Shown piece by piece: positions 2,892-12,240 of a stretch of 20,000 nt of DNA; positions within the stretch are counted from its first letter, which is position 1; the number at the start of each line of letters is the position of its first letter. The position numbers were made by a program, and so were the translations under genes. This DNA is from an uncultured virus (IMG/VR IMGVR_UViG_3300039171_000040) (Duplodnaviria; Heunggongvirae; Uroviricota; Caudoviricetes): positions 53,044 through 73,043 of IMG/VR virus record IMGVR_UViG_3300039171_000040, one strand, 5' to 3'. A model generated the notes under the pieces. That model made no database searches and was not told the origin of the DNA. It was given only the letters and a program-made list of their open reading frames with translations.

Positions 2892-3368
2892 ATGATTACA
2901 TTTGTTAACAGATTCGCATTTAAAGAAATGCTTCGCAACAAGAACGCAGATTTCAATCCTTTAATTTCTACCAAGCTTGCGTATGTTTCTATTAGCGATA
3001 CAAACCACGAGCAAGGGGAAATTGAATCTCTATTTACATTTACAGAAATTGATCCATATTCTTATATCACACTATCCTTTCCAGACAACGATGATGGTAT
3101 CCCCTCAGACGAAGCACAGCGCCTTGTAGACTTCATTAAGAAACACCCTGATAAGGACTTCATAGTTCACTGCTTCATGGGTATATCGAGGTCTGGGGCT
3201 GTTGCAAAGTTCATTAACGAATACTATGATATGAATGATGTGATTTTGAATACTTACACAGGCTATAACAAACAAGTGTATAATAGTCTGAATGCTGTGA
3301 TTGGTAAGGATATTGCATCTTATTACGCAGAACTTGAAAAAGCTGATAAAGGATGCTGGTCAGAATAA
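2892..3368 (+). CDS. protein-tyrosine/dual-specificity phosphatase-like protein
   Basis: CX5R catalytic loop VHCFMGISRS; upstream ISISD-like and F-x-D motifs. Confidence 0.85.
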   Translation: MITFVNRFAFKEMLRNKNADFNPLISTKLAYVSISDTNHEQGEIESLFTFTEIDPYSYITLSFPDNDDGIPSDEAQRLVDFIKKHPDKDFIVHCFMGISRSGAVAKFINEYYDMNDVILNTYTGYNKQVYNSLNAVIGKDIASYYAELEKADKGCWSE

Positions 3369-3372
3369 TTTT

Positions 3373-3380
3373 TATAAATA
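3373..3380 (+). promoter_or_regulatory. T4-type late promoter
   Basis: Exact TATAAATA, intergenic, upstream of ATG 3415. Confidence 0.8.
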
Positions 3381-3414
3381 GGTTATACTTTGAACAATAA
3401 GGAATAGTATTAAT

Positions 3415-3849
3415 ATGGCGTACATTGATAAAGGACTAACTCTACCGGAAGTATTTAAAAGAGTTGCAGAAAAAGAAACAATTGAAGAAAAGGCAAAACT
3501 GTTAAAAGCATACGAAACAAAAAGCTTGCGTTGGTTCATTGATTCATTGTATAATCGTGACTTATCTGATATTGTGATTCCAGAATACAAAGTTTCTAAA
3601 AATCCGTCTGGTATTGCTTTCATGAACATTAACAATTCTATGAACAGAATTGAAGCAGCTATCAGCAATAAAGATAAACCATGGATTGTGAATCGCAACT
3701 TAACATTGGTTCTGGAAGGTGTTACTTCTGAGGAAGCAAGTCTCATTGAAAAACTATTAAAAGGCGAACGCAGAATTACTGGCGTGTCGAAAACGGTTTT
3801 TAAGAAGGCATATCCTGAATTTTTTCGTACTGAGGAAGAGGTTCAATAA
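3415..3849 (+). CDS. conserved hypothetical protein of T4-like phages (helical)
   Basis: EVF..V......EK..LL N-terminus, LEG....EA.L and KKAYP C-terminus recalled from T4-like phages; SD AAGGA. Confidence 0.75.
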   Translation: MAYIDKGLTLPEVFKRVAEKETIEEKAKLLKAYETKSLRWFIDSLYNRDLSDIVIPEYKVSKNPSGIAFMNINNSMNRIEAAISNKDKPWIVNRNLTLVLEGVTSEEASLIEKLLKGERRITGVSKTVFKKAYPEFFRTEEEVQ

Positions 3850-3886
3850 TTTAAAGCGGGGATGGAAAAAGATATTCGCTTAAAAT

Positions 3887-3913
3887 AAACCCCATTCATT
3901 CGTTTGGGGTTTT
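3887..3913 (+). terminator. intrinsic terminator-like hairpin
   Basis: AAACCCCA-10 nt loop-TGGGGTTT followed by T. Confidence 0.55.
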
Positions 3914-3933
3914 CAAAAATAGAGAGGATTAAA

Positions 3934-4098
3934 ATGTCATTCCAACATGATAAAGGAAAAATTAAACACAATGCGTTGGCAGCATTGGTAACATCCAATG
4001 CCTTCTTACCAAAGAAAGAAAAGATCAAAAAAGGCAAAGGATCATACAACCGAAACAGTAAACACAAATCAGACTACTCACACAAACGCATTTTTTAA
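3934..4098 (+). CDS. arfA: alternative ribosome-rescue factor A homolog (54 aa)
   Basis: Start re-called to ATG 3934 (SD GAGG). MSFQHDKGKIKHNALAALVTSNAFLPKKEKIKKGKGSYNRNSKH aligns by eye with E. coli ArfA (YQHTKGQIKDNAIEALL...KKGKGSYMR..KH), including the KKGKGS signature. Confidence 0.92.
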   Translation: MSFQHDKGKIKHNALAALVTSNAFLPKKEKIKKGKGSYNRNSKHKSDYSHKRIF

Positions 4099-4124
4099 AG
4101 TGTTTTTGTATGAGTAGTTTTTTT
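4071..4124 (+). terminator. long hairpin over the arfA 3' end (RNase III site and/or terminator)
   Basis: 4071-4093 pairs with 4098-4120 (about 23 bp, 2 mismatches, 3 G-U); stop TAA 4096-4098 at the apex; T-run 4118-4124. Confidence 0.75.
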
Positions 4125-4149
4125 ATTTGACTACACAAAAGAGAATTAT

Positions 4150-4671
4150 ATGGAAAACTCAAACAAAAAACCAGTACGGATACTATTTCTTGACATAGAA
4201 GGGGTTCTAGCCACGCATCGCGCTCAGTTCTCAAAACTTGAAAGAGGGGCTTTGGAAGATTTTGATTCCGTGGTGGTCGAATTCCTAGATTCTATTTGTA
4301 GCAAGTATCTATGTTATATTGTAATAACATCCAGAAAAAGAAAATTATTTGACAGTGTTGATATTTTTAAGTCAAAAATGATAGGATGGGGTGGTGGGTA
4401 TCTAACGGACTTTTTATTTCCTGATGATGATTTATGGAGAACAACAACAAAAACTCTCGATTATAAATCTTTAGAAATTGACGACTGGTTTGAAAAGTTT
4501 GAAAAGAAATTTAAAAATAAATTTTATATTGACAACTACGTTATTATAGATGACAATCTTCTTGGCTCTATATCAAAGCATGATGATCATTTTGTCTATG
4601 TTAAAAATGGATATAATGGAATGGGATGTGATGAGTATAGGGAATTAATTAAAATACTTGATAAGGAATGA
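4150..4671 (+). CDS. HAD-superfamily domain protein (RNA-repair 'Swiss Army Knife' HAD type)
   Basis: ILFLDIEGVL motif I, IVITS motif II, EI..W and YVIIDD motif IV. Confidence 0.75.
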   Translation: MENSNKKPVRILFLDIEGVLATHRAQFSKLERGALEDFDSVVVEFLDSICSKYLCYIVITSRKRKLFDSVDIFKSKMIGWGGGYLTDFLFPDDDLWRTTTKTLDYKSLEIDDWFEKFEKKFKNKFYIDNYVIIDDNLLGSISKHDDHFVYVKNGYNGMGCDEYRELIKILDKE

Positions 4672-4678
4672 TTTAGTT

Positions 4679-4939
4679 ATGACAATTGAAAAAGTTTTAG
4701 TGTGTGACGCATGTAAACAACCGATTAATGATAACAAGCTAGACGCGATTTCGGTTCTTGGTAATATCCATAAAACAGACTGTAATGAAACTAATGGTTT
4801 TGGTGGTAGGTTGTTTGGTGATTGTAATTGGCTTGCGATTGCGAATTTTGAGGCTCTAGATTATTGTGAGATTCCAGTAACCCACGTTCATTTAAAATGC
4901 TTGATTGATTACTTGCAGCCAAAGCTACGACAACGATAG
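4679..4939 (+). CDS. small putative zinc-binding protein
   Basis: CDAC near the N-terminus and HLKC near the C-terminus; ATG 4679 follows SD AAGGA. Confidence 0.65.
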   Translation: MTIEKVLVCDACKQPINDNKLDAISVLGNIHKTDCNETNGFGGRLFGDCNWLAIANFEALDYCEIPVTHVHLKCLIDYLQPKLRQR

Positions 4940-4942
4940 ATG

Positions 4943-4971
4943 TTGACACAATCCCTCATCATCTGTAGAAT
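4943..4971 (+). promoter_or_regulatory. strong sigma70-type early promoter
   Basis: TTGACA-17 bp-TAGAAT with TG upstream; flanked by 10-bp inverted repeat 4952-4961/4980-4989. Confidence 0.85.
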
Positions 4972-5007
4972 GGGTACTGTGATGAGGGAAACTTAGGAGA
5001 TTAAAGC

Positions 5008-5247
5008 ATGGCTAACATGAAAGCAGTGAATAAAGGAATCAAAGAAGCATTTCTTGGTGATATCGGAATTGAAGCTGTTCGTGGTGATGGATACGTCTAT
5101 TTTCATGGGTTATATGGATTTGATAACGTAGAATCAATAATGACTCACCCTGTAAGCACCAGCACAGAAGATATGATTAGACTGTGTGTTGATAACATTG
5201 ATTGTGCTATTGAATCAGGACTTGATATTTATGGAGAAGAATTGTGA
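5008..5247 (+). CDS. hypothetical early protein
   Basis: 79 aa, SD TAGGAG, first gene after the promoter. Confidence 0.8.
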   Translation: MANMKAVNKGIKEAFLGDIGIEAVRGDGYVYFHGLYGFDNVESIMTHPVSTSTEDMIRLCVDNIDCAIESGLDIYGEEL

Positions 5248-5402
5248 GCTATGAAGAATTCAAATTAAAGTACGCAACCTTTCTTGTTCAAATGATGAGA
5301 TATGAGCCTGATCAAGCTGGTTCAAACATCTATGCAGAAAAGCTTGGTGCGCTTTGTGATGAGTATCCAGAGTTTGAAAAGAAATTAGATGAAGATGATT
5401 GA
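5244..5402 (+). CDS. hypothetical early protein (52 aa, absent from the ORF track)
   Basis: GTG start overlapping the upstream TGA (GTGA), SD GGAG; MSYEEFKLKYATFLVQMMRYEPDQ...KKLDEDD. Confidence 0.7.
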   Translation: MSYEEFKLKYATFLVQMMRYEPDQAGSNIYAEKLGALCDEYPEFEKKLDEDD

Positions 5403-5427
5403 CACCAGAACGCATTTCCTTTATACT
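5399..5427 (+). promoter_or_regulatory. sigma70-type early promoter
   Basis: TTGACA-17 bp-TATACT. Confidence 0.85.
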
Positions 5428-5465
5428 GAGTGTAGAAATTGAGAAATACCTACCGGAGATTAGAC

Positions 5466-5834
5466 ATGGACAAGATTCAATTCGCAGTTATCGAAGCCAA
5501 AGTTTCAAACGCAGTTCTGGCTTATGAAGAAGACTTTGCATTTCGTAATGCAGGTTGCTTAGATTTCGGGACTTGTGGTTATGCCATTGTTCTACTAGGA
5601 TTTGGTCGCAAGCGTAAGATCAAGCAAGAATTTCTTGACGCAGGATTCATCAAAGAAAACAACACTTGGGACAGCTACGGAAAAAAGGAATATGTGTTCC
5701 AGCTACAAAAGCCAACCGTAGGAACTCAGTACATCGGTTTCTATGAAGATCGAGTTCGTGCCGCTGTTAATGTTCTTCGTGAAGAGCTTGATGGAACTGG
5801 GGTTGATGTTAATATGCATACGTGGGTAGATTAA
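5466..5834 (+). CDS. hypothetical early protein
   Basis: Start re-called to ATG 5466 (SD GGAG); GTCGYA motif and C-terminal WVD. Confidence 0.8.
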   Translation: MDKIQFAVIEAKVSNAVLAYEEDFAFRNAGCLDFGTCGYAIVLLGFGRKRKIKQEFLDAGFIKENNTWDSYGKKEYVFQLQKPTVGTQYIGFYEDRVRAAVNVLREELDGTGVDVNMHTWVD

Positions 5835-5837
5835 TTC

Positions 5838-5865
5838 AAAGGGGGCTTGCAAGAGTCCCCTTTTT
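5838..5865 (+). terminator. intrinsic terminator overlapping the -35 of the next promoter
   Basis: AAAGGGGGCTT-GCA-AGAGTCCCCTTTTT hairpin plus T-tract. Confidence 0.8.
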
Positions 5866-5875
5866 CGTGTAGACT
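5847..5875 (+). promoter_or_regulatory. sigma70-type early promoter embedded in a stem-loop
   Basis: TTGCAA-17 bp-TAGACT; the downstream AAACTTAGGAGATT is the same as after the 4943 promoter. Confidence 0.7.
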
Positions 5876-5910
5876 GTATGTATTGATTGGGAAAACTTAG
5901 GAGATTGAAT

Positions 5911-5973
5911 ATGAACATTACCAAAAGTCAGAAAAAGACGATTGATGATCGGGAAGCGTGGAAAGACATTTGA
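5911..5973 (+). CDS. 20-aa peptide or truncated gene remnant
   Basis: Strong SD TAGGAG and ATG; MNITKSQKKTIDDREAWKDI then TGA. Confidence 0.4.
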   Translation: MNITKSQKKTIDDREAWKDI

Positions 5974-6048
5974 AACAGAAAGTGGTGAATATTAAATTAG
6001 CAATAAATACTCTACACAATATAGAAATTAAAAAAAAAAGGAATAATT

Positions 6049-6306
6049 ATGAAAAGTTACGAAGCATTCTTAGAAGAAAGCAAATCAAACATGAAAATTA
6101 AAATTTTTAATAGTGATAACAATGTTGTTGGTAATCGTTTAGTTTCTGACATACACCAAAGGGCTGATGTGATTACTGGTGATATTTCATCATTTGCTAC
6201 TGTAAAAATTAATAAAAAAGTGTATACTGTTAAATTGAATAGTTCGGGAACTGTTGGTAAGGTTATTTTAAAAAGAGCTTTAGAAATAAACTACAAAATT
6301 GTCTAA
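6049..6306 (+). CDS. putative internal head protein (IP-like)
   Basis: N-terminus MKSYEAFLEE closely resembles the T4 capsid-targeting sequence MKTYQEFIAE; late-promoter variant AATAAATA at 6002-6009; very AT-rich. Confidence 0.65.
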   Translation: MKSYEAFLEESKSNMKIKIFNSDNNVVGNRLVSDIHQRADVITGDISSFATVKINKKVYTVKLNSSGTVGKVILKRALEINYKIV

Positions 6307-6357
6307 TTGGAAATATCTGTAATGAGGAATTAAACAAACATTTTAAGAGATTTACTT

Positions 6358-6612
6358 ATGAAACTTTTCAAGTATGTAGAAGCAGCCAACGAGTTTTACG
6401 TTTTCTACCCACACATCACCATCGGTGTTAAAATTGAGAATACCTTTGATGGCGAGAAGGCTGTTGTTTTTGAAGACACATACGCCATGAAAGAATTCTT
6501 GAATTACCTCGAAGATAATTCAGTTGACGTTTCTGAGTTAGAAGCATATGCCTTCGATTCATCATGGGAAGAGACTGCATTCATGATGAATGACTTGCTT
6601 GAATTGAAATAG
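6358..6612 (+). CDS. small acidic hypothetical protein
   Basis: 84-aa ORF in the same orientation as its neighbours, with phage-like codon use. Confidence 0.75.
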   Translation: MKLFKYVEAANEFYVFYPHITIGVKIENTFDGEKAVVFEDTYAMKEFLNYLEDNSVDVSELEAYAFDSSWEETAFMMNDLLELK

Positions 6613-11551: not shown

Positions 11552-12144
11552 GAAAAATGGAATCAGTAATGGTTAACAGCGTTACAAACCCAGTAGAACA
11601 CAGAGCTTATCCATCTGGAGCTATTCATAACTTTTATGTTTATGGAGAAATCGTTTCTGATATTGGATCATACGTTGATATGATCACAGTAATGGATTTA
11701 GCAGAAGAACAGGATGTAATTAATCTTTATATCAACACAGGTGGTGGTTCTCTTGAATCTACTATTTCCATTGTTCATGCAATGCTTAGATCAAACGCAC
11801 AAATCATTTGTCACGCAGATGGACAAATTGCTAGTGCAGGAACTCTTATCTTCTTTGCAGGAAGCTCTTTTGTGGTGTATCCTTTTGCTCATGCTATGTT
11901 CCATGACGGTTCCACTATTATTGGTGGCAAATTTTCAGAAAATTTGAAAGCCGCAGAAGCTACAAGCAAATTGATCAAGAAAATTTGCATGGAAATATAT
12001 GTCCCATACTTTACCAAAAAAGAAGTTAAAAATATTCTAAATGGTAAGGATATGTACTTGACATCAGAAGAACTTCATGATCGGATTATTGTGGGTGCAG
12101 AGATTGCAAAAAGAGAACTTGAAGAGGCGGGTGTTGTTGAATAA
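11548..12144 (+). CDS. clpP: ClpP-like serine protease
   Basis: LYINTGGGS, IASAGTLIF (catalytic Ser), MFHD (His), KDMYLT (Asp). Confidence 0.85.
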   Translation: MRKMESVMVNSVTNPVEHRAYPSGAIHNFYVYGEIVSDIGSYVDMITVMDLAEEQDVINLYINTGGGSLESTISIVHAMLRSNAQIICHADGQIASAGTLIFFAGSSFVVYPFAHAMFHDGSTIIGGKFSENLKAAEATSKLIKKICMEIYVPYFTKKEVKNILNGKDMYLTSEELHDRIIVGAEIAKRELEEAGVVE

Positions 12145-12159
12145 ATAATTTTTTGTTAG

Positions 12160-12240
12160 GGGTCTGTATGTACATAAAGTTCCATAATCTATACATACAG
12201 ACCCTAATATGTACATAAAGCTCTATAATCTATACATACA
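12160..12240. repeat. intergenic nested inverted and direct repeat
   Basis: 13-bp perfect IR 12160-12172/12192-12204; 33-bp direct repeat 12167-12199 and 12208-12240 with 2 mismatches. Confidence 0.9.

Follow-up and report, generated by a model that had tools for sequence, protein, structure and literature searches.

ArfA, a short peptide, adopts its fold only on the ribosome. The Escherichia coli protein, also known as YhdL, is an RF2-dependent alternative ribosome-rescue factor. RNase III cleavage of Vibrio fischeri arfA expressed in E. coli was reportedly described by Schaub et al. in 2012. A substrate of this enzyme is expected to have a stem about 20 bp long.

The literature on bacterial arfA describes a back-up factor that is confined to some beta- and gammaproteobacteria. 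In E. coli, it is encoded by 72 codons, with a hairpin within the ORF followed by a hydrophobic tail, and the substitution A18T abolishes its release activity (PMC8012679). In E. coli, RNase III cuts the hairpin or transcription stops early at it, which leaves a non-stop mRNA under tmRNA control (PMC8012679, PMC8327144). In Neisseria gonorrhoeae, the arfA hairpin terminates transcription before the stop codon (PMC8327144). Hairpin mechanisms of this kind yield non-stop arfA mRNA that is repressed by trans-translation (PMC8012679, PMC8327144, PMC13159725).

Phage ArfA is not new, as it has already been annotated in print for two other phages. Gene g10 of Citromicrobium phage vB_CbaS-RXM is annotated as ArfA (PMC8953757), and gp30 of pelagiphage HTVC027P carries a PF03889 domain, with high expression 3 h and 12-15 h into infection (PMC12753301). 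By annotation, both proteins resemble the ArfA described here, and their hosts are Alphaproteobacteria. The accessible parts of the two papers report no regulation or activity for either protein (PMC8953757, PMC12753301). In the open literature, to which subscription journals and supplements may add, our searches turned up neither a functional test of a phage ArfA nor a description of its hairpin.

Here, we analyze an arfA gene from a salt-lake phage. The window (the whole stretch of DNA that was analyzed, 20 kb) forms the end of an IMG/VR virus record of 73,043 bp, for which CheckV gives a completeness of 46%. Like E. coli ArfA, the encoded protein keeps the whole conserved domain, the alanine equivalent to A18, and the KKGKGSY motif, and a hairpin lies directly after the domain. 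Unlike E. coli arfA, the gene has 54 codons, its stop codon lies in the hairpin loop, its product has no hydrophobic tail, and its carrier is a phage.

RESULTS

The arfA ORF and its product

The coordinates, product length, and Shine-Dalgarno region that the first-pass annotation gave for the ORF were confirmed (Table 1). Its assignment to ArfA also held when checked with a profile. The Pfam ArfA profile (PF03889) matches the 54-amino acid protein at 65.5 bits (E = 2.8e-18) against a curated cut-off of 25.5 bits, and a six-frame genome search with the same profile recovers the window arfA at 64.5 bits. Searches of NCBIfam and PHROGs with the protein gave no match. Among PDB chains, phmmer matched only E. 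coli ArfA (six distinct sequences, best E = 6e-9), and the matched chains come from ribosome-RF2 complexes.

The N-terminal stretch of the phage protein reads N13-A14-L15-A16-A17-L18. Within this N-A-x-x-A-L stretch, A17 lies opposite A18 of E. coli ArfA (alignment to chains 7oj0_6 and 5u4i_w), and the equivalent alanine is invariant in two ArfA family alignments (A1 and A4). Further along, K32-K33-G34-K35-G36-S37-Y38 is identical to the corresponding stretch of the E. coli chain, and the KKGKGSY motif is nearly invariant across two family alignments (A3 and A4). On its sequence, the ORF is a genuine arfA gene of the ArfA family. Both functional halves of ArfA are kept, namely the RF2-activating N terminus and the basic KKGKGSY tail that senses the empty mRNA channel.

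Table 1. Features of the arfA locus, in window coordinates.
Feature	Position	Strand	Details
Upstream gene, 144 aa	3415..3849	+	phrog_461 (unknown function), E 3e-13; homolog of pf16 gp200
Short GC hairpin, AAACCCC...GGGGTTT	3887..3912	+	between upstream gene and arfA; also in contig L003
Shine-Dalgarno region AGAGAGGA	3921..3928	+	GAGG core 3924-3927, 6 nt before ATG
arfA ORF	3934..4098	+	ATG at 3934, 54 codons, TAA
ArfA domain (Pfam)	3940..4068	+	residues 3-45 = profile positions 2-44 of 44
Long AU-rich hairpin	4071..4120	+	20-21 bp, 4-nt loop, from codon 46
Stop codon TAA	4096..4098	+	in hairpin loop
T7 run, terminator-like	4118..4124	+	foot of hairpin
Downstream gene, 173 aa, HAD-family phosphatase	4150..4671	+	PF18143 HAD_SAK_2, 48.8 bits vs cut-off 27.5; phrog_1818

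Genomic context

Around arfA are genes for two Rz-like spanins, a primase, a T5 A1-like "DNA transfer" protein, and a Clp-like protease. The window also encodes PhoH, an ATP-dependent DNA ligase, a tape-measure-like protein, and a T4-type baseplate protein. Elsewhere in the record, we find T4-like neck, sheath-stabilizer, and baseplate-wedge genes, an endolysin, an RNA ligase, and one tRNA-Met. That arfA is phage-encoded, as initially proposed, is borne out by the phage genes on both sides and by synteny with the cultured Pseudomonas phage pf16. DNA of the phage was found in 23 runs labeled salt lake metagenome, none of which is on record as RNA.

The phosphatase encoded downstream of arfA (Table 1) is of the HAD type that is found in "Swiss Army Knife" RNA repair proteins. 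An RNA ligase (PF09414, 44.4 bits) and a Zeta_toxin-like P-loop kinase (36.6 bits) are encoded at positions 37020-37994 and 46477-47313 of the record, respectively. Taken together, the RNA ligase, the P-loop kinase, and HAD_SAK_2 would be parts of an RNA-repair kit, which fits a phage coping with RNA damage. We make no claim of a conserved arfA-repair operon, since the HAD_SAK_2 gene does not stand beside arfA in the other loci covered by the neighbor survey.

Two further genes of the record are recorded here as observations. Two genes before arfA, a 158-amino acid protein (window 2892-3368) has a weak, sub-threshold match to PF00782, the dual-specificity phosphatase domain (21.1 bits against a cut-off of 33.5), and a match to phrog_5614. 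On the minus strand of the record, an ORF at 11688-12236, among tail-fiber and baseplate genes, matches the family of the lipid A 3-O-deacylase PagL (PF09411, 35.5 bits).

Age of arfA in the phage lineage

A megablast search of the whole window against cultured phages gave no match, and tblastn with the 54-amino acid protein against cultured phages gave nothing at E 1e-3. When the tblastn threshold was E 10, the matches were all weak, to pf16 and to bacterial Salmonella records. The relationship to pf16, a 158-kb Chakrabartyvirus, is seen in the A1-like protein (60.8% identity) and in the order of genes: homolog of gp200, arfA, primase, A1-like protein, and protease follow one another in both phages (tblastn, pf16 112-138 kb). 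The upstream gene of the window (3415-3849) matches the pf16 gene directly before pf16 arfA with 43% identity over 139 amino acids (tblastn).

The pf16 arfA gene is unannotated (KU873925, 131766-131918; 3001-3153 of locus L064), and a hypothetical gene has been drawn over it on the opposite strand. Its product scores 70.9 bits in the Pfam search and is 59% identical to the window ArfA over 37 residues. Its tail comprises 9 residues, and by our test its stop has no hairpin that reaches 14 bp, whereas the window protein has a tail of 16 residues with a hairpin. Because the gene occupies the same syntenic place in pf16, arfA is, by the measure of gene order, old in the pf16-related phage lineage.

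Near-identical copies occur in two other IMG/VR contigs, with amino acid identities of 100% (L002) and 96% (L003). Over codons 1-45, the window and L003 differ by eight synonymous changes and one nonsynonymous change, and the flanking DNA is 83-86% identical. This ratio of changes indicates that the window arfA is under purifying selection. In a tree of 76 ArfA domains, which has few columns and is poorly resolved, the window protein groups with L003 and three metagenome proteins and nests in no sampled bacterial genus. The nearest bacterial homologs by sequence identity are all Gammaproteobacteria, and the closest cultured phage infects Pseudomonas.

These data bear on whether arfA might be a passenger, that is, a recently captured host fragment with no role for the phage. 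ArfA is patchy among related phages, as would suit such an origin, and it is missing from all five of the more distant phages that share the A1-like protein (KASIA, Paraglaciecola GD1, Vibrio 1.121.O, Slicko01, and Shewanella 1/40). However, pf16, whose host belongs to another genus, carries the gene at the same place in the gene order, and all but one of the differences between the window gene and L003 are synonymous. Furthermore, the window sequence falls within no bacterial genus sampled in the poorly resolved tree, and at least four further phage genomes carry a full-length ArfA above the Pfam cut-off. We therefore consider a mere passenger very improbable.

ORF length among bacterial relatives

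The first-pass annotation saw in the phage copy an ArfA already trimmed to its active length, which would imply escape from regulation. As a description of the ORF, the lack of a hydrophobic tail is correct: the protein ends 16 residues past KGKGSY without one. As a trait specific to the phage, it does not stand, since bacterial relatives are equal in this respect.

A scan of bacteria, limited to one genome per species, gave 41 loci (L005-L045) with 48-68% identity. Most are from Pseudoalteromonas, and the others are from Shewanella, Thalassotalea, Paraglaciecola, Aliivibrio, Vibrio, Psychromonas, Rheinheimera, and Ferrimonas. After KGKGS[YF], the tail at these 41 loci is usually 16-17 residues long, with no hydrophobic stretch. 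Tails of this length are seen in Pseudoalteromonas, Thalassotalea, Aliivibrio, Psychromonas, and Vibrio (L005-L044), whose proteins are 51-68% identical to that of the phage and equal to it in tail length. Long tails are restricted to Rheinheimera, Ferrimonas, and a few others. In a library of 1.8 billion proteins, 119 matches range from 51 to 124 residues, many of them being 51-66 residues long.

Because the short tail is common to the nearest bacterial homologs, it does not set the phage copy apart. The short ORF is instead the norm for this branch of the ArfA family and not a phage adaptation. The proposal that trimming releases the gene from regulation is not supported, on two counts: the usual tail at the 41 bacterial loci is equally short, and the hairpin around the stop codon is retained.

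Differences between the phage and bacterial proteins are found at both ends. Bacterial ArfA proteins carry longer basic N-terminal leaders than that of the phage. Furthermore, 32 of the 41 bacterial ORFs end in Ala-Ala (e.g., -SYLIAA and -PYSKAA), whereas the phage tail ends in KRIF. The Ala-Ala ending resembles LAA, with which the ssrA tag ends, and on that ground may act as a degron; it may also stand in for the hydrophobic destabilizing tail of E. coli ArfA. If the ending does mark full-length protein for proteolysis, then the full-length phage product would be stable. Thus, the KRIF end raises the possibility that regulation of the phage gene may have changed.

A hairpin at the 3' end of arfA

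The long hairpin at the end of the gene (Table 1) begins directly after the Pfam domain, and its 5' arm codes for the last 8 codons. Its stem comprises 10+5+6 pairs. The segment folds with an energy of -21.6 kcal/mol (z = -4.36), and none of 200 shuffles was as good. Among the 15 sites of the 73-kb record that combine a hairpin with a T6 run, the arfA hairpin is the longest (21 bp) and the most stable (-20.3 kcal/mol). The clear GC-rich terminators of the phage record have 5-8 bp.

Rfam held no relevant family, the sole match being a chance one to a miRNA (E = 0.38), and a pattern scan for promoters and terminators did not call the long hairpin. The same scan found no promoter before arfA, with promoter-like sites being no commoner than in shuffles, and it missed the short GC hairpin upstream of the gene because the loop exceeds 8 nt. 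This short hairpin is probably the terminator of the upstream gene or else part of the arfA leader. Over positions 3800-4250, T3899G, in the loop of the short hairpin, is the sole difference between the window and four salt-lake contig sets, all of which read G. The four sets are near-identical to the window and so contain no variants of the arfA hairpin.

Variants of the gene's end are found in L003 and in a metagenome sequence. In L003, a one-base deletion shifts the stop codon into the 3' arm, giving an ORF of 60 residues. Even so, its RNA forms a hairpin of 20 bp (-22.4 kcal/mol, z = -4.94), with compensatory changes on both arms. In the metagenome variant P0002, the stop codon of the loop is gone and the frame reads on, and the stem is kept. 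The RNA structure, rather than the exact stop or tail, appears to be conserved.

Bacterial arfA genes share this layout. By our score, a stop codon counts as enclosed when it falls within an unbranched hairpin of 14 bp or more. This is the case at 34 of the 41 bacterial arfA loci, 33 of them with the stop in the loop. Among control ORFs, the same test was passed by 21/119 in the bacterial loci (other ORFs of at least 100 codons) and by 15/108 in the phage record. A looser test, which accepted any enclosing pairs, was passed by 65/119 controls, and the unbranched-hairpin test was used in its place. The bacterial hairpins are 16-40 bp long, enclose the stop codon in their loop, and have a T-rich tail, and they lie in register with that of the window. 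The phage stem is more AU-rich than theirs, and most bacterial loci have a shorter T run.

An RNAalifold consensus of the window, L003, and 33 bacterial loci places the phage hairpin in the bacterial columns, with 12 pairs, 6 of which have compensatory changes. Eight of the 41 bacterial loci were left out of this fold (seven without the layout and one with its stop in the 3' arm). Judged by its in-register alignment and retained pairing, the phage arfA hairpin is inherited from bacterial arfA and has been maintained.

The same region can also be read as a terminator and nothing else. Under this alternative, the stop codon would be kept in the message, and a stable, active 54-residue ArfA would be made constitutively throughout infection, with no tmRNA tagging. 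The position of the T7 run accords with it: the run comes immediately after the stem, and termination there would occur downstream of the stop codon, so a simply terminated transcript keeps its stop, and a non-stop message would need a nuclease cut. The window thus departs from Neisseria-type arfA, which it resembles in having a hairpin at the ORF end that would control whether the message carries a stop; here, the T run comes after the stop codon, and termination alone keeps it. The phage's KRIF end, where most bacterial ORFs have Ala-Ala, and the high early and late expression of the ArfA-domain protein of HTVC027P (PMC12753301) likewise favor constitutive production. Furthermore, arfA loci from virus collections without a hairpin at the stop (L051/L052, and L053, which looks bacterial by its neighbors) suggest that unregulated copies seem to exist.

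Other features of the hairpin argue against constitutive production. A 20-21-bp AU-rich stem far exceeds the ordinary terminators of this phage, and it is homologous in register to the hairpins of bacterial arfA. In addition, the stop has been moved in L003 and lost in P0002, while the stem has been kept in both. We regard a constitutive product as possible, but doubtful.

ArfA in other phages

The survey of phage genomes for ArfA that the original proposal suggested was run on a sample, and it gave full-length ArfA in several phages. Matches above the Pfam cut-off were found in pf16, in Salmonella phage Arash, and in three IMG/VR genomes (G001-G003), at 68-74 bits. The three IMG/VR genomes measure 151 kb, 182 kb, and 106 kb, and terminal repeats are present in the two larger ones. 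In Arash, ArfA is gp99c (2923-3147 of locus L063), which has been labeled "ribosomal protein L2"; a tRNA cluster is adjacent to it. A tblastn search of cultured phages with another phage ArfA as query (L054) retrieved Arash and pf16. When IMG/VR was scanned for the pattern of a 13-sequence alignment, 17 loci emerged, two of which (L049 and L053) look bacterial by content.

Most of these genes lack a long hairpin at the stop. Among nine further ArfA loci from virus collections, some of which encode the same or near-identical ArfA and one of which (L053) looks bacterial, eight fail the test for a hairpin of at least 14 bp (L048, L050, L052-L055, L058, and L063), and only L057 passes. This scarcity weighs against the view that the window gene has retained gating by tmRNA. 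At L048 (~4100-4153) and L054 (~4110-4159), a short GC hairpin is present with a U tract that runs into the TAA stop. By analogy with N. gonorrhoeae arfA, termination at this tract would give a stop-less message.

Part of the protein occurs on its own in other viral ORFs. The C-terminal motif, without the N-terminal part, is found at four loci: L004, L060, and L062 have small ORFs in viral contigs with this motif only, and L061 has a phage ORF of more than 1000 residues (3197-6427) with an internal KAKKGKGSYTRRAKHKG, the ArfA C-terminal motif alone.

A phage ArfA might also be repurposed as a ribosome binder, which would occupy the empty mRNA channel against tmRNA-SmpB or divert RF2, altering host quality control or a defense that depends on it. 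Phage ORFs with a KKGKGSY-type motif alone are circumstantial evidence for this reading. The window protein, however, keeps the whole ArfA domain, including the N-terminal segment and the A18-equivalent alanine, and looks complete. For this protein, we find repurposing improbable.

DISCUSSION

We describe an arfA gene that is carried by a phage together with a hairpin of bacterial type around its stop codon. Phage-supplied rescue capacity during infection is plausible. By family membership and conserved residues, the 54-residue ArfA most likely acts with host RF2 to free, during infection, ribosomes that have run to the 3' ends of truncated mRNAs and stalled. The gene would be a long-standing resident of a T4-like-tailed, pf16-related phage lineage, inherited together with the bacterial regulatory hairpin.

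How its production is controlled is the point on which the explanations differ. We favor retained gating by tmRNA, at slightly better than even odds in our judgment, over a constitutive product. Under retained gating, host RNase III most likely cuts the hairpin, as in E. coli arfA, and the message would thereby lose its stop codon. While trans-translation has spare capacity, tmRNA-SmpB would tag the nascent ArfA for destruction, as the conserved anatomy of the gene suggests. ArfA would then accumulate only once trans-translation is saturated. Thus, the phage would carry a self-gated back-up rescue factor and not a trimmed one that is constitutively active. The control rates for stops inside hairpins are not negligible (21/119 and 15/108), which weighs against gating, as does the scarcity of long stop hairpins at other phage arfA loci.

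A bolder version of constitutive production is that the phage ArfA has been uncoupled from both host safeguards, with the hairpin serving as a terminator only and the Ala-Ala ending, a possible ClpXP-type degron, having been lost. An always-on factor, together with the RNA-repair genes, would then counter host defenses that cut mRNA or tRNA. We think this unlikely. If it is true, the HAD_SAK_2 phosphatase, the RNA ligase, the P-loop kinase, and a stable ArfA would amount to a counter-measure against RNA-cutting host defenses.

Phage arfA is not a new principle; the gene is an ordinary-looking family member in an unusual carrier. Our analysis adds that the regulatory hairpin is retained, that the locus is syntenic with that of pf16, and that two cultured phages have annotation gaps. 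In pf16 and Pseudomonas putida, a cultured phage-host pair that carries arfA offers a simple, testable system. The presence of a complete arfA in several unrelated large phages suggests that stalling on broken messages recurs in phage infection. At least one phage lineage keeps the self-regulating hairpin, which suggests that a tmRNA-gated design may be useful to a phage too.
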